Shown: positions 35,155-45,830, numbered from the stretch's first letter. The stretch: 64,000 nt of DNA from Acidimicrobiales bacterium (GCA_050633745.1 JBOEHD010000040.1:1435-65434), one strand, 5' to 3'. Notes: generated by a model from the sequence alone, not told the origin. Translations and numbers: made by a program.

Positions 35155-36339
35155 TTACGCCTTACTGTCCTGGGGGAACAGGTCGTGAAGCTGATAGAGC
35201 TCGACGACGTTGCCACCGAGGATCTTGCCGGTGGCCTCTGGCGACAGCGCCGCAGTCTGCTCGGCCAACATGCCCTGGCTAAAGGGCCAGGTTGAATCGC
35301 TATGGGGGAAGTCGTTAGCCCACATCAGCTGTTCGGCATCGAGCAGGCCAGCCTCAGCCATTCGGAACGCCGACCAGTCATCTTGGAAGGTGACCTTGAC
35401 GTTGCTCTTGAAGTAGTCGCTTGGAATACGTTCCAGGTCGACACCCTTTAGCCAGTTGCGGTGGCGGTTGTAGGCATGGTCCATGCGGTAGCTGTAATGG
35501 GGTACCCAACCGGCGTCCGCCTCGACACAGACGATCTTGAGATCCGGTTTGCGGTCGAACACGCCTCCGAAGATGAACGTGCCGATCAGATCCTGATTGC
35601 CCCGGATGATCGACATGAAGCTGTTGAGTTTCGGTCCCCGGGGTCGATACGACTCGCCGGTGAGGATGTGAAACGACAGCACCAGGCCGAGGTCGAGCGA
35701 TGCCTGATAGAAGTCGTCCCATATGGGGTCGTCGTAGTCTGCTCCGCCTTTTTCGTAGGCCGGCCCCGGTGTTCCCGGGAGCATTACGCCCCGAAGACCT
35801 GCGGCCTTAATCGCTTCGAGGTCGGCGATGCCTTCTTCCGGTGTGCGCATCGCGGTTTGGCCGCAGCCGTAGAGTCGGGCCGGAGCCACCGAGCAATAGT
35901 CGGAGATCCAGCGGTTGTACCCGTCGAACATAGCTTTCTTGAGGTCGAGGTCGGGGTGGTTACAGAGCAACATGCCGACCGACGGGTAGATCACTTCGCC
36001 GTCGATTCCGTCGCGCTCTTGGGCTACTACCCGCGCTTCGGCATCCCAACCGGCACGATGCAGACCCTCGAAAGGCACACCCTTCATGAACAGCTCGTCG
36101 GACGGCTTACCCGCCGACGAATGCAGGCCAAGGTGGATCTTGTAGCTCATGCCGGGCACGTGGAAGGTGGCGCCGTCGGGAGCTTCGTCTGTCATGTACG
36201 GCACCTGGTCGCGGAAGGCCGGGTCGACATTATCGATATAGGTCCACCCCGGCTCGGTGATGTGAGAATCGGCCGAGATTATCGGCGAGTCGATTACCCG
36301 TGGGGCGTTCTCGACATGACTATCGGTGGTAAGGGCCAT
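35155..36339 (-). CDS. Amidohydrolase_2 family protein (ACMSD-like metal-dependent hydrolase/decarboxylase)
   Basis: IISADSHITEP (N-terminal HxH-like metal site) and the C-terminal WANDFPHSDSTWP motif are present. Confidence 0.85.
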   Translation of the reverse strand: MALTTDSHVENAPRVIDSPIISADSHITEPGWTYIDNVDPAFRDQVPYMTDEAPDGATFHVPGMSYKIHLGLHSSAGKPSDELFMKGVPFEGLHRAGWDAEARVVAQERDGIDGEVIYPSVGMLLCNHPDLDLKKAMFDGYNRWISDYCSVAPARLYGCGQTAMRTPEEGIADLEAIKAAGLRGVMLPGTPGPAYEKGGADYDDPIWDDFYQASLDLGLVLSFHILTGESYRPRGPKLNSFMSIIRGNQDLIGTFIFGGVFDRKPDLKIVCVEADAGWVPHYSYRMDHAYNRHRNWLKGVDLERIPSDYFKSNVKVTFQDDWSAFRMAEAGLLDAEQLMWANDFPHSDSTWPFSQGMLAEQTAALSPEATGKILGGNVVELYQLHDLFPQDSKA

Positions 36340-36568
36340 CGCATTGCTCCTCGTTCGAGATCTCAGTTTGATTCGGTTTTGGTTCCGCTTTGGTATGCGG
36401 TGCCAACATCACTGCAAAGACATCACTGTGAAAAGAGTACTTGTCCAGCTCGGTTGGAGGTAATTGTCGTCGTTTGGGCCGGTGAGCAGCTTCTGGTGGC
36501 CGGTTACCTCGGCCTGATTGCACTGGCCTGTTTGCGTTGGACAGTTGCCGAGCGCGACCCTTCATGCC

Positions 36569-37801
36569 ATGACAGACAGCGCAACACCGGTTACCCACGA
36601 TGGCGAGGACCAGTCCGAGGGCCCCCTGGCCGGTCTGAAGGTCGTTGAGCTGTCGATGTACGTGCAGGGCCCGGTGGCCGGTCTGACCTTGGCCAGCCTG
36701 GGCGCCGATGTTGTGAAGATCGAGCGGGTTGGCCATGTCGACCATATGCGCACCTTCAAGAGCGTGTTCGGCGTCGAGTTCGATGACCGGGGTCAGGAGT
36801 GGGTCTACGCATCGCTCAACCGAAACAAGCGAGCCATCGCTCTCGACATCGCCACCGATGCCGGGCGGCCGGTGTTCCATCGCTTGATCGAAGAAGCAGA
36901 CGTGTTCATCACCAACATGCGAGCCGCTGGACTGGATGCCCAGGGTGCCGATGTCGAAACGCTGATGGCGATTAATCCCCAGCTGGTCTACTGCCGGGGC
37001 GCGGGGTTCGGCACCCGAGGCCCGATGGCCGACGACCCCTGTCAGGACACCGTCGGCATGGCCTTCGGTGGTTTCATGGACAGCACCTCACCGAATGAGA
37101 CACCCAACTATCCGCCCGGTTCGATGAGCGATGTCTTGACCGGCAGCAACATGGCTTCGGCGGTGATGGCCGGGTTACTCAAGCGAGCCAAGACCGGCAA
37201 GGGCTGCGTGGTCGGCACCTCGCAGACCCAGTCTCTGCTGTGGATGCAACTCCAGGGGGTCGGCATGGCGGCCAGCCTCGGCGAGCGTATGGAGCGCTTT
37301 CAGCCAGACGCCACCACCAATCCCCTATTCACCGTGTACGAAACCGCCGACGGCTGGATTGCCATCGCCGCGCTGCGTCGCAACCAATGGCTGAACATCG
37401 CTGAGGTGACCGGCCTATCTCACATGCTCGAAGACCCCCGCTTTGCCACCTTCGACGATGTGATCACCAACCGCGACGAGTTCCGACCGGTATTCGGCAA
37501 ACACCTCAAAACGCAGCCCACCGATCACTGGTGGCAGAAACTCCGGGCCGCCGATATCTGGGTGTCGCCGGTGAACCGGCTGGAAGACCTAGCTGAGAAC
37601 GAGCAGATCAAAGCCAATGAGTATCTGGTGAGCTTCGATGACGGCTTTGTCGGGCCGCCTGCCCCGTTCGAGGTCGATGACTGGCTCGGCGCTCGAGGGC
37701 TGGCCGCTGACTACGCTGAACATACCGACGAGGTGTTGGCCGAACTCGGCTTCGACGAGGAACGTATCCTGACCCTCAAGGCTGAAGGAGTGGTGTGGTA
37801 G
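36569..37801 (+). CDS. Family III CoA-transferase (CaiB/BaiF family)
   Basis: The sequence GPLAGLKVVELSMYVQGPVAGLTLASLGADVVKIE...NMRAAGLDAQGADVETL matches the family. ATG 36569 (MTDSATP) is preferred over 36518. Confidence 0.9.
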   Translation: MTDSATPVTHDGEDQSEGPLAGLKVVELSMYVQGPVAGLTLASLGADVVKIERVGHVDHMRTFKSVFGVEFDDRGQEWVYASLNRNKRAIALDIATDAGRPVFHRLIEEADVFITNMRAAGLDAQGADVETLMAINPQLVYCRGAGFGTRGPMADDPCQDTVGMAFGGFMDSTSPNETPNYPPGSMSDVLTGSNMASAVMAGLLKRAKTGKGCVVGTSQTQSLLWMQLQGVGMAASLGERMERFQPDATTNPLFTVYETADGWIAIAALRRNQWLNIAEVTGLSHMLEDPRFATFDDVITNRDEFRPVFGKHLKTQPTDHWWQKLRAADIWVSPVNRLEDLAENEQIKANEYLVSFDDGFVGPPAPFEVDDWLGARGLAADYAEHTDEVLAELGFDEERILTLKAEGVVW

Positions 37802-38724
37802 CAAACCCCAATATTCGAGTCGGCATGTCGACCCCGTGGGATTTCTGGTCCCTTTCCGGTGAGGACCGGCAGGCCAGATTGAGCGCCGCGGTTGAGGGCG
37901 GTCTCACCCACATATTCTGTGCCGACCATGTCAGTTTCCATGGCGGCAACGGGTCGGACGGGATTGTGCAGATGGCCACCATCGCCGCCACCGAGCCCCG
38001 ACTCGATGTTTATGTCGGGGTGTTCCTGTTGGCTCTGCGGCATCCAGTGGTAGCCGCTCGCCAGATCGCCACCCTGGCCCAAGCGGCACCCGGGCGGGTG
38101 ACCATCGGGGTCGGCGTCGGAGGCGAAGATCGACATGAGTTCGAGGTATGTGGCGTTGACCCGGCGACACGCGGAAAGCGCACCGACGTGGCGCTCGATA
38201 TGGTCCGCAGGCTGCTGGCCGGCGAAACGGTTGACGGCGACGGAACCTTCTTCGACGTGAGCGAGGCGATGATCCGGCCGGCGCCCAAGCCAGCAGTCCC
38301 GTTCGTCGTCGGTGGTCGCTCCGATGCTGCAGTGCTTCGGGCAGGCCGCCTCGGCGATGGCTGGCTTGCCACGTGGTGCTCGCCTCGCCGCTTCGCCGAG
38401 GCTGTCGCTCTGGCGGAGACCACCGCAGCCGACGCCGGCCGAACCGATGTGCCGTGGCAACACGGGTTACAGCTGTGGCTGGGCGTTGGAGACAACGCCG
38501 AGGAGGGTCAGCGATACGTGGCAGACGCCATGGAGCGGTTCTACAAGCTGCCCTATGCCGCGTTCGCCAAGTACACCCCGTGCGGCACGCCAGCCGAGAT
38601 CGTCGAGTTCCTCAAGCCGTACATAGAGGCCGGCGCAACCACGTTCAACCTGACCACGGTGGGAGCGACCCCTGAAATCGAACTCGAAGCGTCTACTGAA
38701 ATCAGTTCGCTGCTGGCCGGCTGA
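37795..38724 (+). CDS. LLM class (luciferase-like) oxidoreductase, probably F420-dependent
   Basis: The sequence GLTHIFCADHVSFHGGNG...VGVFLLALRHPVVAARQIATLAQAAPGRVTIGVGVGGE is LLM-like. GTG 37795 overlaps the upstream stop. Confidence 0.8.
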   Translation: MVANPNIRVGMSTPWDFWSLSGEDRQARLSAAVEGGLTHIFCADHVSFHGGNGSDGIVQMATIAATEPRLDVYVGVFLLALRHPVVAARQIATLAQAAPGRVTIGVGVGGEDRHEFEVCGVDPATRGKRTDVALDMVRRLLAGETVDGDGTFFDVSEAMIRPAPKPAVPFVVGGRSDAAVLRAGRLGDGWLATWCSPRRFAEAVALAETTAADAGRTDVPWQHGLQLWLGVGDNAEEGQRYVADAMERFYKLPYAAFAKYTPCGTPAEIVEFLKPYIEAGATTFNLTTVGATPEIELEASTEISSLLAG

Positions 38725-38725
38725 C

Positions 38726-40732
38726 CTAGTCTCCGGCGGTTAGGAACTCGTCGGTGTTAAGCACCACAACCTTCGCTCCTCGACTTCTGGCTAGCTCCAC
38801 CATGTCTGCCGTTCCCCCTGGCCCGTCGCCTGCGGCACGGTTCCACAGGGCGAGGAGGGTCACGTCGGCGTTCTCTATGGCAAATGCCTTTTCCAACATC
38901 CACATGTTGCAGCGCTGGAACACGTAGTGCTTGTCGGCGGCGCTGACCCAAGTCGGCATCGGTTCGTCGAGAACGTCGGGGTTCAACTCGGTGCAGAGCC
39001 TGCGAAACCGTTCCGGCCACGTTCCGCCGCTGCCATCTACAGAGCGTTGAAGAAACTGACCTTCGGGCAGGGCTAGCACCGCTTCGGTCTCGAGGCCGAG
39101 CTCAGCGGCCACCTCGTGGAACAAGATATCGTTGCCGCTGGCCAAGCCAGCGATCCCGCTCACGGCCCCATCGGCATAGGATCTTTCTTCCTCGATCGCC
39201 GCGGCCAGCGCCGCTCTGGCGGCCGTTTCAGCTGCGGCGGGGAAACGGGGCTGCGCTCGTCCCGGATCATCGATCCGGTGACCGGTTGACACGATGATCC
39301 GCTTCCGCGGCTCGGCCGCGACAGGAATCGGCGGCACACCCGCAACCAGATCATCATCGGGCACACCGAGGGCTGCCAGGCTGGCGGCGGCCTTCTCCGA
39401 GCAGATGTCTAGGCGTTTGAAGAGAAGAAGTTGGGCCGCGGCCGATGCAATGTTGAAGTCCGCCTTTGTGCGCGCCGTTGCATCTCGGTAGCCCTGGGCA
39501 ACATGCTCGACCCGGTCTGAAGTCAGGAAACGGTGATCAGCGATACTGAGGTCAAGCCAGAGGTCGGTCTCGCCGGAGCGACGAGCACGGGCCTTAGCGG
39601 CGTCATGAGCTAACGCGGTAGCCGACAGTAGTTGTTCGCGCCGAGAGGTTTGGCGGCGCAGGTGGCTCGCCGCATCGTCTTCATCCTCGAACCGAGCCTC
39701 CCAGACATCGGGGTACCGCCCCGCTAGTTCGAGCAGGATCGTGCTCATCGATAGGGCGTTAACACCCGGATAGTAGTGGTTGATATCTTCAAGAAACCCC
39801 GCCCGGTATGCGGTTAGACAATCGAGCAACTGCGCCGATCGTAAGGCCTGGCGTTGCTGTTCAATAGGGTCATCGACAGCGATCCACTCGGCAGTCCACT
39901 GTGTCTTGTGGTTCCGTGCCCGCAGAGCCAAAGCTTCAGCCCGATCGACTCTGGACGCCTCGCCATTGGTGACCCGGGCGATCGCCTCCTCCGAGCGCGC
40001 CATGTCGCCAGCCCGGTGGTAGATGGTGGCAAGCGCCAGGTTCGCTTCAACATCATCGGGTCGCGCCGTTCGCACCCTTTCCCAGGTCGCTCCGGCTCCG
40101 GTGTGGGCCTGCAACTTTGAAAGCGCCTGGCCGACGAGACGTTGACCGGCGAGATTCCAGCGCTCAACTCGTGCCTCGTCGCCGAGTAAACCCAGCTGCC
40201 CGACCCGCTTGTTTTTGCGTGCTCGCTCGACCGCCTCGATGAACTCCCGAGGTGTGCTGAGGTATGCGACTCCGTCGCGCCGCTCCAGGCTGGGGATCAG
40301 CTGGTAGACCGGACTGTCGGTGTTGTCGCTCTTGAGCGTCGCTTCGATCGTTCGGCTCAACTCATTGCGAGATGTCTCCGGATCGTTTGGGTCGTAGCGA
40401 AGATACCGGTCGGTCTTGAGGTCAAAGGGCACCGCATCGACTCTGCTGTTGATCAGAATCGTTGGGCGGTGGCGTAGCGCATGCCGCACCCCGAGTTCGT
40501 AGTAGACGTTGGCGTTGTGAATAGAGATGTCGGCGATCACCAAGTCGGCGGTGAGCAGCCGCTCCATCATGTCGGCCCGGATATTGCCCGATTCGACTAT
40601 CGGTCCAGTGGTTCCCCATTCGGTGTCCGGCCGCTCGTCGAGGACCGGTTTGATGATCTGGTCTTCCACTCGGTCGAAGTCCACCCCGCTCTTCTCACCG
40701 AACGGTCTGACGATAAAAACGTAGGTCTGCAT
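38726..40732 (-). CDS. Three-region conflict-system-like protein: N-terminal TIR/nucleoside-deoxyribosyltransferase-like Rossmannoid domain (DUF4071-like), helical TPR-like middle, C-terminal SLOG (DprA/LOG-like) domain
   Basis: N-terminus: MQTYVFIVRPFGEKSG...DLVIADISIHNANVYYELGVRHALRHRPTILI (beta-strand/Gly loop, conserved Glu79). Middle: helical repeats (NLALATIYHRAGDMARSEEAIARV, INHYYPGVNALSM). C-terminus (aa 477-662): RIIVSTGHR...SGIAGLASGNDILFHE...GDGPGGTADMVELARSRGAKVVVL. These resemble the DprA GLAxGID and LOG PGGxGTxxE motifs. The start lies 9 nt after the patatin stop. Confidence 0.8.
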   Translation of the reverse strand: MQTYVFIVRPFGEKSGVDFDRVEDQIIKPVLDERPDTEWGTTGPIVESGNIRADMMERLLTADLVIADISIHNANVYYELGVRHALRHRPTILINSRVDAVPFDLKTDRYLRYDPNDPETSRNELSRTIEATLKSDNTDSPVYQLIPSLERRDGVAYLSTPREFIEAVERARKNKRVGQLGLLGDEARVERWNLAGQRLVGQALSKLQAHTGAGATWERVRTARPDDVEANLALATIYHRAGDMARSEEAIARVTNGEASRVDRAEALALRARNHKTQWTAEWIAVDDPIEQQRQALRSAQLLDCLTAYRAGFLEDINHYYPGVNALSMSTILLELAGRYPDVWEARFEDEDDAASHLRRQTSRREQLLSATALAHDAAKARARRSGETDLWLDLSIADHRFLTSDRVEHVAQGYRDATARTKADFNIASAAAQLLLFKRLDICSEKAAASLAALGVPDDDLVAGVPPIPVAAEPRKRIIVSTGHRIDDPGRAQPRFPAAAETAARAALAAAIEEERSYADGAVSGIAGLASGNDILFHEVAAELGLETEAVLALPEGQFLQRSVDGSGGTWPERFRRLCTELNPDVLDEPMPTWVSAADKHYVFQRCNMWMLEKAFAIENADVTLLALWNRAAGDGPGGTADMVELARSRGAKVVVLNTDEFLTAGD

Positions 40733-40741
40733 GTCACCGAC

Positions 40742-41929
40742 TCAGCTGTGTATTGGCAGGTCGACAAAGCGCCCGAAGTGCGCAAGGTCGACGTCGTGGG
40801 CCAGGTTCTTGCCGATGCGGGTGAGATCGGGCATGGCATCGACCGAATCGAGAGCGCTTACGTCGTCGGCTTTGATATCGCCCAAACCCCGCTCGGCTAG
40901 CCAGGCGTCGGTGAGGGTGGCGTTGTACCTGGCATAGAGGAAATCTCGGTCCTGGTCGTCCTCGAGCGGTAGCGGGTTGCCTGCACCATCCTTGGGGATC
41001 AAGTCACCGACTTCGTTGTCGATGTGGTCTCCGGTGGTGCAGCGACCGACGGTTCGAGCGTTGACGTCCTGGTCGTAGGCGGCCTGGCTCATAAGCGAAC
41101 TGAGCGTATTGACCGCAGACGAGGCCAGGTTCGATTCGGGGTCATCGATGGACGCGCCAAGGGTGGCGGCCGAGCCGGTACCGAGCGAAACGACCAGAAG
41201 GTTTCGTTCACCCTTCTGCCAGCCGAGGTTGTATGCCGGTTCGGTGGCCATCCGAGCCATCAGGAACGCTGGGTTGTTGTAGGTCGTCGTGCCGCCGTCG
41301 ACGAAGACGAACGCCTTGTTGTCGTTGCCCTCTTCCCAGTAGATGACCTCGGGCGGAAAGTACACCGGTGCGGCGGTGCTGGCTCGAACCAGTTTCCATA
41401 GCGGCACGTTGAGGTTGCAGTCTGGCCTGTCAACGTCGTTGTACTTGGCAGCGGGGTTGCTGGTCACCGGCCAGGCGGAGTCGGTGGTCGCATTGCGGGT
41501 GACGACCAGCAACAGCGACTTCAGATCCTGAGGGTGCAGTGTCGATTCGCTGCCGTAGACCTCTTTTAGCTTCTGCTCCAGGGGTCCGTTCTGGTAGAGG
41601 GCGTTCCAGATCTTCCAGCGGCGGCGGGTGAACACCACCTGACCGAACGCCTCGTAGAACTCTAAGATCTCGGCCACTGAAAGGCCTCGCGCCACGCCGG
41701 CGGCGATGATGGCGCCGGTACTGGTGCCGGAGACGTAGTCGAAGAACTGACACAACCGAAGATCGGGCTCGTTGTAGTGCGCCCGTAGTTGACTCTCGAT
41801 TTCCTGGAGCACCTGCAGGGTCAAGATCCCTCGAATCCCGCCCCCGTCGAGAGCAAGCATGCGACGAGGTTGATCGACCTCATATCGTGCTCGCAGACCC
41901 CCCCACTGCTCTGGTTGTTCTAGCGCCAT
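40742..41929 (-). CDS. Patatin-like phospholipase with about 120-aa acidic C-terminal extension
   Basis: The oxyanion loop DGGGIRG (aa 28-34), nucleophile elbow GTSTG (Ser70) and catalytic Asp in FVDGGTTTYNNP (Asp211) are all intact. A strong SD (AGGAGG) lies 5 nt upstream of ATG 41929. Confidence 0.9.
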   Translation of the reverse strand: MALEQPEQWGGLRARYEVDQPRRMLALDGGGIRGILTLQVLQEIESQLRAHYNEPDLRLCQFFDYVSGTSTGAIIAAGVARGLSVAEILEFYEAFGQVVFTRRRWKIWNALYQNGPLEQKLKEVYGSESTLHPQDLKSLLLVVTRNATTDSAWPVTSNPAAKYNDVDRPDCNLNVPLWKLVRASTAAPVYFPPEVIYWEEGNDNKAFVFVDGGTTTYNNPAFLMARMATEPAYNLGWQKGERNLLVVSLGTGSAATLGASIDDPESNLASSAVNTLSSLMSQAAYDQDVNARTVGRCTTGDHIDNEVGDLIPKDGAGNPLPLEDDQDRDFLYARYNATLTDAWLAERGLGDIKADDVSALDSVDAMPDLTRIGKNLAHDVDLAHFGRFVDLPIHS

Positions 41930-41986
41930 TTGCCCCTCCTGCTTCAGTCGCTAATGCCTATAGTCGTGCTCATCGGTGCCGGTTGC

Positions 41987-42043
41987 TGGTGTTCAGTGTG
42001 TGGTGTTCGGTGTGTGGTGTTCCGTCTGTGGTGAATTTCTGTG
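41987..42043. repeat. 14-bp tandem direct repeat, 3 good copies plus 1 degenerate copy, in the divergent intergenic region
   Basis: TGGTGTTCAGTGTG / TGGTGTTCGGTGTG / TGGTGTTCCGTCTG / TGGTGAATTTCTGTG. Confidence 0.85.
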
Positions 42044-42073
42044 TTTGGGCGATAGCCCGAACCGGTCGACGCA

Positions 42074-42093
42074 CAGATTGTGGCAGATTGCGG
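42074..42093. repeat. 10-bp tandem duplication in the same intergenic region
   Basis: CAGATTGTGG / CAGATTGCGG. Confidence 0.75.
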
Positions 42094-42180
42094 CGCTGTC
42101 TGCTCATGCTGGTGTCTCTGTCTTGAGCTCGGCATACCGGGGGAACCACCTGTTCCAGCGATCCTGACTACCATCAGCCA

Positions 42181-43149
42181 TTGGTGGTAGGAACAGCGGA
42201 ACCGCAGGCCGAAGCGAATAGGGTGCTCGACCACGTCTGGGAGCGTCAGCGTGGCTGGTCGATCGGCGCCGACCTGGCGAAGGCTCAGGTCGAGAGGGCC
42301 CGCATCGGCAACCTGCTACTCATCGTCGGAGCTGCGGTCTTCGGTGCGCTTGCGGCCCAATCCGACTGGCTACCTTCCGGCTTCCAGCGAGGCCTCAGTC
42401 TGGCCGCCTCTGTCCTGCTGATGGTGGCCGGGTTTGTGCAAAGCCACTATCTGACCGCCCTGAAGGTCAAAGCCTGGACCGCAGCCCGGAGCGCTTCGGA
42501 GACGCTGAAGGCCCTCGTCTATGTGTACATGGCTGGCGTGAGCGTCGATACGAGCTCAGACAACAGCCACGAAGAAAGCCAGGTCGACGCTGCGCTGTTG
42601 GACCAGCTGACGATGGTGGAGAGCCGGGCATTTGTGCTCGGAGCCAACCGAGCCGACCCAGATAACAAACCGCTGCCAACCGTCGCCAGCGTTCCCGACT
42701 ACCGTGCCAACCGCACCGAGGAGCAGGCCCAGTGGCACAGCACCCGGCGAGGCGAGCACGACCGGCGAGCGAGGTTACTGCGAGCTGCCCAGCTTGGGCT
42801 GACGGTACTCGGTTCGGTCCTTGCGCTGATCGCCGGCGTCTCCGCCCAACCGGGGATCGATTCCTGGGTCGCCGCGGTCGCCGCCATGGGGGCAGCTGTG
42901 GCCGCCCACCTTGGAGCCACCCAGTACGACCGCATCGCTCAGAGCTATGAGGTCACCGCAACCCTGCTCGAACGGGAAGTGGTTCGGTTCGACTCACTGC
43001 AGCAACGGTCCGCGACAGCGGTCGACGAGGGTGCTGGTCTGATCGGCGGCAATGCCGGCCAAACCCTCGTCCGCAATACCGAGGAGATCCTGGCCAGGCA
43101 GAACGATGGCTGGATCGACCTGATCCAAAAGGCAACCGAGCCGAACTAG
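42181..43149 (+). CDS. Membrane protein with two tandem SLATT-like (DUF4231-like) 2TM modules
   Basis: Module 1: TM IGNLLLIVGAAVFGALAA, TM LSLAASVLLMVAGFVQSHYL, then helix KAWTAARSASETLKALVYVYMAG. Module 2: YRANRTEEQAQWHSTRRGEHDRRARLLRAAQLGLTVLGSVLALIAGV, TM WVAAVAAMGAAVAAHLGA, then helix YDRIAQSYEVTATLLEREVVRF. The start is uncertain (TTG 42181, GTG 42184 or GTG 42223). Confidence 0.7.
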   Translation: MVVGTAEPQAEANRVLDHVWERQRGWSIGADLAKAQVERARIGNLLLIVGAAVFGALAAQSDWLPSGFQRGLSLAASVLLMVAGFVQSHYLTALKVKAWTAARSASETLKALVYVYMAGVSVDTSSDNSHEESQVDAALLDQLTMVESRAFVLGANRADPDNKPLPTVASVPDYRANRTEEQAQWHSTRRGEHDRRARLLRAAQLGLTVLGSVLALIAGVSAQPGIDSWVAAVAAMGAAVAAHLGATQYDRIAQSYEVTATLLEREVVRFDSLQQRSATAVDEGAGLIGGNAGQTLVRNTEEILARQNDGWIDLIQKATEPN

Positions 43150-44723: not shown

Positions 44724-45830
44724 CTAGGAGCTGCTGGCGCTGAGATGCTGGGATAGCGCCGGAGCGACCTCTTTGGCCAGCTTGGTCATCGAGTTGAGCC
44801 AACGGGTCCCGTCGTCCTCCCAGTCGTGACCAACCGAAACCAGAGTGCCGAACGGGCCGATGTTGTCTGCCATGTCGATCAGGCGATCCCTCACGGTGTC
44901 GACCGACCCGGCAATCACACACTTGTCGATCGCCTTTGGCACGCTCAGCTGATCGTTGATCTCCTCCAGTGACAGGCTCGACTCTTCGGTCTGAAGGCGG
45001 ACCATGTCCCGTACGCCCGCCAGGTAACGGAAATAGAAGGCGAAGGTGCCGTCGGGATCGGCCAGCAGCTCGTCGGATTCGGCATCGCTGTCGGTGATCA
45101 GGATGTTCCGACAGACCCGCCAAATCTTCGGATCGATCTCTAGCCCCAATTCTTCTCTGGTTGAGCAGTAGGTCTGCCACTGACCTGCCACCGCCGACTG
45201 AGGTACAAAGTTGGCGGAGATCGGAATGAACCCACGGGCCGCCACGGTTCGAACCGAATCACCGGCGGGCGAGGCCAGAGCCATGGCCAACGGCGGGTGG
45301 GGCTGCTGCAACGGCTTGGCCATCTGCCCAACGCCATGGGAAGTCCAGATCTGTTCCTCGAGCGTGGCGTTCCAGTATTCGCCCTTGAGGTCGAACGGAG
45401 CATCGTCGTTCCACAGCGCCAGGATCATGTCGATCGACTCGGTCGCCACTTTGACCCGTTCGGCCATGTCGGGCCTGCCGAACAGCTCGCCGTCGCTCAT
45501 CAATCCGCCCGGACCGACGCCGAGCATCAGCCTGCCACCGCTCAGTTGATCGAACAGCGCGGCCTCAGCAGCAACTACAACGGGGTGACGGTGGCCAAGA
45601 TTTACGACCCCGGTACCGAACCGCATACGTTCGGTCTGATGGATCAGGGTGGCCAGGAACAGCAACGGTGACGGAACCTGTTCCGCCTTGGTTGTGAAGT
45701 GTTCACCGACCCAGGTTTCGGCAAAGCCGAGACTCTCGGCGTGGAGAATCATCCGCCGGTCTTCTTCTAGAGCTTGGCCCCACGGCTTCTCCGGTCGGTG
45801 TAGGGGCATAAAGAAAAGGCCAAGATCCAT
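44724..45830 (-). CDS. LLM class flavin-dependent oxidoreductase
   Basis: The sequence MDLGLFFMPLHRPEKPW...SLGFAETWVGEHFT...GRLMLGVGPGG is a luciferase-like TIM-barrel pattern. Confidence 0.85.
   Translation of the reverse strand: MDLGLFFMPLHRPEKPWGQALEEDRRMILHAESLGFAETWVGEHFTTKAEQVPSPLLFLATLIHQTERMRFGTGVVNLGHRHPVVVAAEAALFDQLSGGRLMLGVGPGGLMSDGELFGRPDMAERVKVATESIDMILALWNDDAPFDLKGEYWNATLEEQIWTSHGVGQMAKPLQQPHPPLAMALASPAGDSVRTVAARGFIPISANFVPQSAVAGQWQTYCSTREELGLEIDPKIWRVCRNILITDSDAESDELLADPDGTFAFYFRYLAGVRDMVRLQTEESSLSLEEINDQLSVPKAIDKCVIAGSVDTVRDRLIDMADNIGPFGTLVSVGHDWEDDGTRWLNSMTKLAKEVAPALSQHLSASSS

Follow-up and report, generated by a model that had tools for sequence, protein, structure and literature searches.

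At present, what defines Thoeris-type immunity is a TIR enzyme whose product is a signal derived from ADP-ribose (ADPR), and the SLOG domain of ThsA, the SIR2-SLOG protein of type I Thoeris, is a proven sensor of 3′ cyclic ADPR (3′cADPR). Type VII Thoeris pairs the TIR with a SLATT protein, and type VIII, validated by experiment in 2025, pairs it with ThsI, described as 'CMP hydrolase and TPR' (tetratricopeptide repeat); the ThsI and SLATT effectors are both activated by canonical cADPR and are occasionally found together in one operon (10.64898/2025.12.03.692087). BcTpr, from the BcTir/Tpr system of B. cereus, whose N-terminal domain was modeled on the CMP N-glycosidase MilB (PDB 4JEM), binds cADPR and cleaves NAD+, the substitutions N82A and E86A abolish both its NAD+ consumption and phage defense, and the largest class of the 78 Tpr operons is 'core Tpr alone' (10.1101/2023.05.26.542521). 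As relayed by the same preprint, the 2020 computational catalogue of Burroughs and Aravind holds an association of the 'Tpr core' with TIR as well as 'YspA-Tpr', 'Patatin-Tpr' and 'LSDAT' assemblies. Here we describe a locus of an Acidimicrobiales bacterium (GCA_050633745.1 JBOEHD010000040.1:1435-65434), analyzed within a window that is the whole 64,000-nucleotide (64-kb) stretch of DNA. It encodes a 668-amino-acid (aa) protein that is best read as a ThsI/BcTpr-like core, with a DrHyd and a TPR-S domain, carrying a YpsA-like SLOG domain at its C-terminus.

The three-domain open reading frame (ORF) lies on the minus strand at positions 38726-40732, running from an ATG start to a stop codon at 38726-38728; an earlier note on this DNA had marked exactly this interval without giving the strand. 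The protein is 100% identical to the NCBI entry 'MAG: tetratricopeptide repeat-containing protein [Acidimicrobiales bacterium]' (MAG, metagenome-assembled genome) and its homologues at E ≤ 1e-3 number more than 1800, so we regard it as the product of a genuine and widespread gene. Among the homologues listed, the best 120 have lengths of 585-696 aa and align over 88-100% of the query at 44-67% identity (E ≤ 2e-163). Conservation was measured in an alignment of 39 sequences, 44-61% identical to the 668-aa protein, and an AlphaFold2 model of the full-length protein made with this alignment has a mean predicted local distance difference test score (pLDDT) of 89 and a predicted template modeling score (pTM) of 0.83. 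In the model, aa 3-134 form an alpha/beta domain of five strands, aa 141-454 are helical throughout, aa 463-472 are a disordered linker and aa 477-666 form another alpha/beta domain, again of five strands, which agrees with the alpha/beta ends and helical middle (aa ~150-470) drawn in the note. The commonest residue has a mean frequency of 0.72 in the N-terminal domain, 0.59 in the TPR region and 0.65 in the SLOG domain, with conserved residues concentrated in all three; the linker (aa 461-476; positions 39305-39352, minus strand), with pLDDT below 50 at aa 463-472, varies freely, at a frequency of 0.16. The strings quoted in the note were found at the residue numbers it gave, YVFIVRPFGEKSG at aa 4-16 and DLVIADISIHNANVYYELGVRHALRHRPTILI, with E79 within YYELG, at aa 63-94, and the three segments and their motifs are kept across the family. 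E79 and both Gly-rich loops are invariant in 39 of 39 sequences, so the loss of conservation among homologues for which the note had allowed did not arise.

By its fold order, its PADLOC match and its homology to ThsI-like proteins, the N-terminal domain (aa 1-145; positions 40298-40732, minus strand) is probably of the DrHyd type, which is nucleoside 2-deoxyribosyltransferase / MilB / DNPH1-like, and on its motifs and ThsI homology we assign it to the ThsI-like clade of that branch. Its homologues suggest a putative N-glycosidase acting on NAD+ or a nucleotide. The modeled secondary structure is b1-a1-b2-a2-b3-a3-b4-b5-a5, in which strand b3 (aa 64-68) is followed by a loop with N73-A-N75 and then by a helix (aa 74-86) bearing E79, all invariant. 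The active-site motif containing N73, N75 and E79 (positions 40478-40516, minus strand) is invariant in the 39 homologues and in two ThsI-like plasmid proteins, and the three residues match N80, N82 and E86 in the N80/P81/N82/E86 motif of BcTpr. The full invariant block around E79 comprises A67, D68, S70, N73, A74, N75, Y78, E79, L80, G81, R83 and H84; a joint alignment with the ThsI-like plasmid proteins, to which the domain is 34-38% identical, keeps F11, G12, D63, A67, D68, N73, A74, N75, Y78, E79, L80, G81, R83 and H84, and likewise D139-S-P141.

More distant likenesses of this domain point the same way. Its profile gave weak matches to DNPH1/Rcl in the PDB (E 0.017-0.04), aligning YYELG on GVGYELG and E79 with the catalytic Glu, consistent with the N-terminal Rossmannoid domain of TIR/DrHyd class that had been proposed. 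DNPH1/Rcl, MilB and the nucleoside 2-deoxyribosyltransferases appear to share with it a catalytic Glu placed within a motif of YELG type, on the helix that follows strand 3, and a preceding hydrophobic strand with Asp at its end; however, the scores are marginal, and the NAN loop and the RH that follows the Glu are specific to the ThsI-like clade. Pfam PF05014 (Nuc_deoxyrib_tr) was matched weakly, at E 0.13, in 2 of the 39 members. The top PDB sequence for the profile was 8rc5 chain 1A, 'ORF016' (E 0.013), with a 'DISxxNANxFY' string in common, possibly by chance. A canonical TIR identity was rejected: the 668-aa protein had no match at E ≤ 1 to Pfam TIR, TIR_2, ThsB_TIR or CAP12-PCTIR_TIR, and the domain has DrHyd-type motifs and ThsI homology instead. 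Nor is any TIR family among the 25 Pfam families that the 39 members match most often. The 'TIR' label on the domain comes solely from PADLOC cluster PDLC00733, an 'Effector / TIR' cluster of the cyclic oligonucleotide-based antiphage signaling systems (CBASS), which matches it in 39 of 39 members with a best E of 3.5e-10.

The closest annotated relatives of the core were found on plasmids. A tblastn search with aa 1-460 gave 84 plasmid records, and most of the 30 listed were annotated 'TRAFs-binding domain-containing protein', with matches that reach aa 5-333 at 27-29% identity (E 1e-19 to 4e-21). On an E. coli IncP plasmid, two ThsB_TIR genes and a tandem SLATT_3+SLATT_1 gene come after that for a 402-aa relative (TPR-S, E 1.5e-17; PF13281, E 1.6e-7), whose N-terminal part is 34% identical to ours (E 4e-21), with the whole active-site motif common to both. 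On Rhizobium plasmids, the genes downstream of a 447-aa relative (PF13281, E 8.3e-39; TPR-S also present) encode a tandem SLATT and a ThsB_TIR protein. The operons of these relatives have the gene content of type VII/VIII Thoeris, a ThsB-type TIR and a tandem SLATT. Likeness to ThsI/BcTpr extends over the glycosidase domain and TPR-S, across aa 5-333, with the motifs ADxS/TxxNANxxYELGVRHA and DSPxY in common, and the ThsI/BcTpr loci also hold tandem SLATT genes. However, ThsI/BcTpr proteins have ~400-450 aa, lack a SLOG domain and are normally paired with a ThsB-type TIR gene, whereas the 668-aa protein is longer by a SLOG domain of 190 aa, its conserved partner is a patatin, and no TIR was found in the 64 kb.

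The link to DUF4071 (now PF13281, MAP3K_TRAF_bd), the domain of ASK-type MAP3Ks that the note had named, is borne out by weak direct matches in 9 of 39 family members (best E 0.0036) and by clear homology to plasmid proteins bearing the domain, the bacterial ThsI-like homologues matching it at up to E 8.3e-39. The 668-aa protein itself gave no PF13281 match at E ≤ 1, no ASK1 chain was recovered from the PDB by profile search and, unlike the ASK-type MAP3Ks, the protein has no kinase domain. ThsA also resembles it in joining an NAD+-consuming catalytic domain to a SLOG nucleotide-binding domain within one polypeptide, but ThsA has SIR2 in place of DrHyd and lacks TPR-S, and the likeness of the SLOG parts is at the level of fold only, with no sequence-profile similarity of the C-terminal domain to known SLOG families. 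The protein had been proposed to fuse a signal generator to a signal reader. A catalytic-type domain and a SLOG domain do stand in one chain, but an N-terminal domain of this kind with TPR-S is known from ThsI/BcTpr as a cADPR-activated effector and NADase and not simply as a generator, so such a fusion becomes one of several options. The logic is also less unusual than had been thought, as 'Tpr core' assemblies with a YspA-type SLOG and with patatin are already in the catalogue of Burroughs and Aravind (2020), as relayed by 10.1101/2023.05.26.542521.

The middle of the protein (aa 146-460; positions 39353-40297, minus strand) is the all-helical TPR region, and a full-length profile run against PDB sequences found designed or natural TPRs only. 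Within it lies the Pfam domain TPR-S ('Tetratricopeptide Repeats-Sensor', PF20308) at aa 213-329 (39746-40096, minus strand; E 1.1e-10; 42.4 bits against a cut-off of 27.6 bits), which was found in 38 of the 39 family members. Conservation of ≥90% was observed at 64 of the 315 positions of the TPR region, many of them polar or aromatic. The helical repeats of the proposed TPR-like scaffold are there; the scaffold is not a neutral one, however, because a sensor domain and many invariant polar or aromatic residues are present. By analogy with its homologues, TPR-S is a putative binder of a cADPR-type ligand. The pattern of conserved polar and aromatic residues argues for a conserved small ligand and not for an arms-race surface directed at a phage protein, and it speaks against the suggestion that the TPRs track a fast-varying phage protein.

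The C-terminal domain (aa 477-668; positions 38729-39304, minus strand) is well supported as a SLOG fold, YpsA/DprA-like, at the level of predicted structure. We modeled aa 470-668 separately (pLDDT 91), because Foldseek with the full-length model had been swamped by TPR matches. Foldseek then gave three PDB matches below 1e-3, namely YpsA 2nx2 (E 8.9e-5, TM 0.63/0.70), DprA 3uqz and ShosA 8zva, and 24 matches below 1e-3 in BFVD, a set of predicted viral structures, where the named ones were mostly DprA-like, 'YspA cpYpsA-related SLOG' or DUF2493. The modeled domain is a three-layer alpha/beta Rossmannoid with a five-strand parallel sheet, superposing on solved SLOG members to which its sequence is 12-17% identical (YpsA, DprA and ShosA). 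Both Gly-rich loops pointed out in the note fit this fold. The first, GLASGND at aa 529-535 (39128-39148, minus strand), is of the DprA-type GxAxGxD kind, and the second, DGPGGT at aa 636-641 (38810-38827, minus strand), is LOG-type, GGxGT-like; G529, A531, G533 and D535 of the one and D636, G637, G639, G640 and T641 of the other are invariant in the 39 sequences. A further invariant loop after SLOG strand 1, G484-H485-R-x-D488...R492...R496-F497-P498 (39239-39283, minus strand), is specific to the family, and the invariant charged residues of the domain are H485, D488, R492, R496, D535, E540, R607, D636 and D643.

YpsA, DprA and ShosA are the only significant structural matches in the PDB, and the first loop is of the DprA/ShosA type; they differ in having no recognized counterpart of the family's GHRxD...R...RFP loop. 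DprA and ShosA are DNA binders. YpsA of B. subtilis is a cell-division regulator, as cited in PMC7159879 and PMC9503650, and SLOG domains of the YpsA clade include sensors of cADPR isomers (PMC9503650). For some SLOG domains, Aravind and colleagues predict that NAD+ is turned into ADPR-derived signals (PMC9503650). Sequence profiles did not reveal the domain: no Pfam SLOG model matched the 668-aa protein at E ≤ 1, the 39 members match 28 Pfam families, of which the 25 met most often include no SLOG, NCBIfam gave no SLOG match to the protein, PADLOC gave only a weak ShosA match (E 0.026) over aa 524-555, the stretch of the first Gly-rich loop, and a profile of the domain found nothing relevant among PDB sequences, the one match, to PPK2, being spurious. 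Since these searches gave no clear match, this SLOG clade is one that current profile libraries, Pfam and NCBIfam included, leave unmodeled. An exhaustive search with the SLOG-domain profile found 4404 proteins at E ≤ 1e-3 among 1.84 billion representatives at 50% identity. Stand-alone forms of the domain were considered and set aside; of the two short matches that were checked, one is a fragment, on a contig of 1.4 kb, and the other is probably a split gene.

The 668-aa ORF is preceded in its operon by a gene for a CapV-like patatin phospholipase (395 aa; 40742-41929, minus strand; PF01734, E 6e-29; PADLOC phospholipase effector, E 3.7e-42), whose stop codon lies 9 nucleotides before the ATG of the ORF. 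Diverging from the operon is a gene for a 322-aa two-transmembrane (2TM) protein in which two SLATT domains stand in tandem, DUF4231/SLATT_3 and then SLATT_1 (42181-43149, plus strand; Pfam SLATT_1, E 3.8e-18, and DUF4231, E 3.8e-15; NCBIfam SLATT_1, E 6.7e-23), and this gene is probably part of the system. The effectors are encoded separately, as the note had it, with the patatin and SLATT genes adjoining the 668-aa ORF. These neighbors match the CapV-type patatins of CBASS and ThsH, the SLATT protein of type VII Thoeris, and homologues suggest that both would be effectors gated by small molecules. In its tandem domain architecture the SLATT protein is like those encoded beside the ThsI-like plasmid genes, although it is only 21% identical to the ThsH-like protein of a plasmid. 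The 251-bp divergent region between the patatin and SLATT genes (41930-42180), taken from the ORF coordinates, is the presumed promoter region; a scan for the sigma-70-type consensus found no promoter-like site in it, and a promoter and terminator scan of the locus gave one promoter-like site, not above shuffled sequence, and no terminator-like site.

No TIR was found in the window with custom hidden Markov models (HMMs) of TIR_2 and ThsB type or with PADLOC over its 55 ORFs, and PADLOC found no nucleotide cyclase or CD-NTase (SMODS) among the same ORFs. The locus differs in this from both CBASS and type VII Thoeris, and its patatin scores 114 bits against the NCBIfam model CBASS_lipase, below the cut-off of 200. 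A CBASS reading, suggested by the CapV-like patatin and the PADLOC 'CBASS effector TIR' match, was rejected, as there is no cyclase in the window.

Members of the family occur in at least 588 species-representative genomes from about 10 phyla: Acidobacteriota, Actinomycetota, Bacteroidota, Pseudomonadota, Myxococcota, Cyanobacteriota, Planctomycetota, Verrucomicrobiota, Nitrospirota and Gemmatimonadota. We sampled the neighborhoods of 87 related loci, looking for TIR genes within 6 kb. A patatin gene lies directly upstream on the same strand in 48 of the 87 and elsewhere in the locus in 12 further ones, and a second patatin subfamily of ~600 aa was present in 6. TIR genes were found at 19 loci (~22%), so that in ~78% no TIR gene was detected within 6 kb; a DUF4062 protein is encoded at ~4 of the 87 loci, and genes for CAP12-type TIR, CHAT and calcineurin-like proteins are sporadic. 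A SLATT gene is adjacent at 4 loci (~5%), a count made with a profile from four downstream SLATT genes, as phmmer returned nothing when the related loci were searched with the single sequence of the window SLATT. The conserved unit is the patatin with the three-domain protein, embedded in a wider TIR/TPR-S network. The SLOG-fused, patatin-coupled, mostly TIR-less family is described here as a large coherent group, the component assemblies having already been predicted computationally.

Several of the sampled loci depart from the common layout. A Phycisphaeraceae MAG encodes a 799-aa member (L057:5995-8394, plus strand) with an extra C-terminal TIR_2 domain (E 1.4e-8) after the part that aligns with aa 2-664, and if so TIR-, DrHyd- and SLOG-class domains stand in one polypeptide. 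Two ORFs of 1195 and 1199 aa (L018:4411-7998 and L052:4402-8001, plus strand) have an N-terminal extension before the DrHyd-TPR-S-SLOG body, which in L018, the one scanned, matches nSTAND1 and P-loop models; a TIR gene of 420-430 aa is directly upstream in both, and the ORFs may be true fusions or an ORF-calling artefact of in-frame read-through. Directly downstream of the family gene in three loci are mutually clustering proteins of ~1840 aa (L038:8079-13604, L040:8077-13599 and L050:8073-13640, plus strand), of which the one scanned, from L038, combines a DUF7379/LCAT-like lipase, a caspase-like CHAT domain and TPR-S; TIR genes lie upstream in L038 and L050, and the three are multi-effector TPR-S loci. 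In L059, L066 and L072 the order is patatin, family gene, DUF4062 protein, TIR-family protein and second TIR-family protein; the first of these two has TIR_2 fused to Pterin_4a in L066, and the second has TIR_2 with a prokaryotic YEATS domain in L059. Possible unrecognized partners are a 362-aa protein without an informative Pfam match that adjoins two patatin loci (L001/L002:8047-9135, minus strand) and a 239-aa protein with a PEP-CTERM tail only at a patatin-less locus (L004:5039-5758, minus strand).

How the parts would work together can be described by analogy with these systems. We favor, tentatively and at something just short of an even chance, a TIR-less relative of Thoeris VII/VIII in which the 668-aa protein is a self-sufficient hub, its DrHyd domain catalytic and its TPR-S and SLOG domains ligand-binding regulators, with a nucleotide signal derived from NAD+. 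This comes near the note's idea of a generator joined to a reader, except that the middle region would be a sensor as well. The protein would be auto-inhibited in the uninfected cell. On infection, an ADP-ribose-type nucleotide would be bound by TPR-S and/or SLOG, which would switch on the N-terminal glycosidase; this would cleave NAD+ or a related nucleotide, both depleting the pool and releasing a diffusible ADPR-derived product. The product, or the same input signal, would then activate the membrane-attacking patatin lipase and the SLATT pore, and the cell would die or arrest before the phage cycle is completed. Self-sufficient production of the signal is favored because most loci of the family are without a TIR and the patatin is the only widespread partner.

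A number of points weigh against this self-sufficient hub. The family can evidently work with a TIR generator, since ~22% of loci have a TIR gene and one member is fused to a TIR domain at its C-terminus, and TIR-less members might rely on a TIR encoded elsewhere in the genome. A second sensor in the form of the SLOG domain looks redundant if TPR-S already senses the signal. The two preprints closest to the system, 10.64898/2025.12.03.692087 and 10.1101/2023.05.26.542521, conflict on whether the TIR or the Tpr protein is the signal maker, and in the literature we found no experimental treatment of the SLOG-fused, patatin-coupled, mostly TIR-less family. Foldseek with the full-length model returned TPR and OGT-type proteins only and nothing on the end domains. 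At the locus itself, the membership of the SLATT gene is uncertain because SLATT is adjacent in only ~5% of loci, and there is no defense-island signature, as the flanks are housekeeping in character and the GC content is flat.

A rather unlikely alternative makes the SLOG domain the signal generator, a LOG-type N-glycosidase in place of the ThsB TIR, with TPR-S reading the product and turning on the DrHyd NADase, the patatin and SLATT. The plasmids carry a ThsI-like core with TIR and SLATT, and the window carries a core-SLOG with SLATT and without TIR, SLOG standing in the place of the TIR, a position that mildly favors a catalytic SLOG. The many invariant charged residues kept in the domain fit such an enzyme, but a SLOG that binds a ligand, as in ThsA, would be expected to have them just as much. 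Signal-making SLOG domains acting on NAD+ are a prediction of Aravind and colleagues (PMC9503650), and 'YspA-Tpr' is listed beside 'Tir-Tpr' assemblies (10.1101/2023.05.26.542521); no SLOG domain, however, is known from experiment to make an immune signal. Moreover, 22% of loci and one fusion protein hold both SLOG and TIR and would then have two generators, and the presence of both together in a fifth of loci mildly favors a regulatory SLOG.

The 668-aa protein could instead be a receiver and effector only, that is, ThsI with an extra sensor, fed by a generator, TIR or other, that is encoded elsewhere in the genome, or by a phage or host nucleotide, which we regard as unlikely. ThsI is a cADPR-activated effector (10.64898/2025.12.03.692087), loci with the 'core Tpr alone' lead the 78 Tpr operons (10.1101/2023.05.26.542521), and some loci of the family do hold TIR genes. 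Set against this, an effector-only two-gene module spread over at least 10 phyla would require a conserved trans-acting generator in each; our check for a generator covers 64 kb of this genome. Finally, a housekeeping or stress module that couples nucleotide status to lipid remodeling (compare YpsA and the ASK kinases), or a TPR sensor of a protein ligand, would suit the metabolic flanks and flat GC, the chromosomal position of the family in many free-living soil bacteria and a closest solved SLOG structure, YpsA, that is a cell-division regulator as cited in PMC7159879 and PMC9503650, but such a non-immune role is very improbable, as all recognizable parts (CapV-like patatin, SLATT, ThsI-like core) are typical of abortive-infection families, the variable neighbors are TIR, DUF4062, CHAT, nSTAND and transposases, the patchy spread across phyla suggests horizontal transfer, and the TPR surface is conserved, not diversifying.

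The rest of the window is of metabolic character, and its GC content is flat throughout. Beyond the operon and the SLATT gene we observe F420-type luciferase-like monooxygenase (LLM) oxidoreductases, a CoA transferase and a nitroreductase. The ORFs at 37795-38724 (plus strand) and 44724-45830 (minus strand) are luciferase-like monooxygenases by Pfam Bac_luciferase, the first also matching NCBIfam F420-dependent LLM models. Elsewhere, two long ORFs overlap on opposite strands: the one at 35155-36339 (minus strand) matches Amidohydro_2 (E 3e-18) and is probably a real gene, and the 395-aa one at 35461-36648 (plus strand) is probably a shadow ORF of the kind typical at this GC content. One of the 55 ORFs matches PADLOC Csa3 and CARF3 (E 2.9e-13 to 1e-7) and may be merely a helix-turn-helix (HTH) regulator, and three, the two luciferase-like ones among them, match the generic PADLOC 'C3a156 oxidoreductase', which should not be taken for a defense signal.

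For the biology of Thoeris-type systems the family is of interest because it keeps the effectors of types VII and VIII (the ThsI-like core and, here, SLATT as well) and adds a CapV-like lipase and a SLOG domain that profile libraries do not recognize. Its hosts are mostly soil and freshwater bacteria that are rarely used in defense-system screens, the two-gene system is missing from PADLOC 2.0 (2023), and searches centered on TIR would overlook it. The boldest interpretation, immune signaling that is independent of TIR and self-sufficient, in which the DrHyd or the SLOG domain makes an NAD+-derived messenger for the patatin and SLATT, is possible though doubtful. If true, generator, sensor(s) and one effector activity would be combined in a single polypeptide, allowing feed-forward amplification, and the protein would be the first non-TIR generator for Thoeris-type signaling; should the SLOG domain be the enzyme, it would be the first SLOG immune-signal synthase. 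Testing would show which of the TIR-related domains generates the signal and which reads it, and it could help to settle the conflict between the two preprints over the Tpr protein as the maker of a cADPR isomer. The N-terminal regulatory module of animal ASK kinases has a counterpart in bacteria, to which such work would assign a function.

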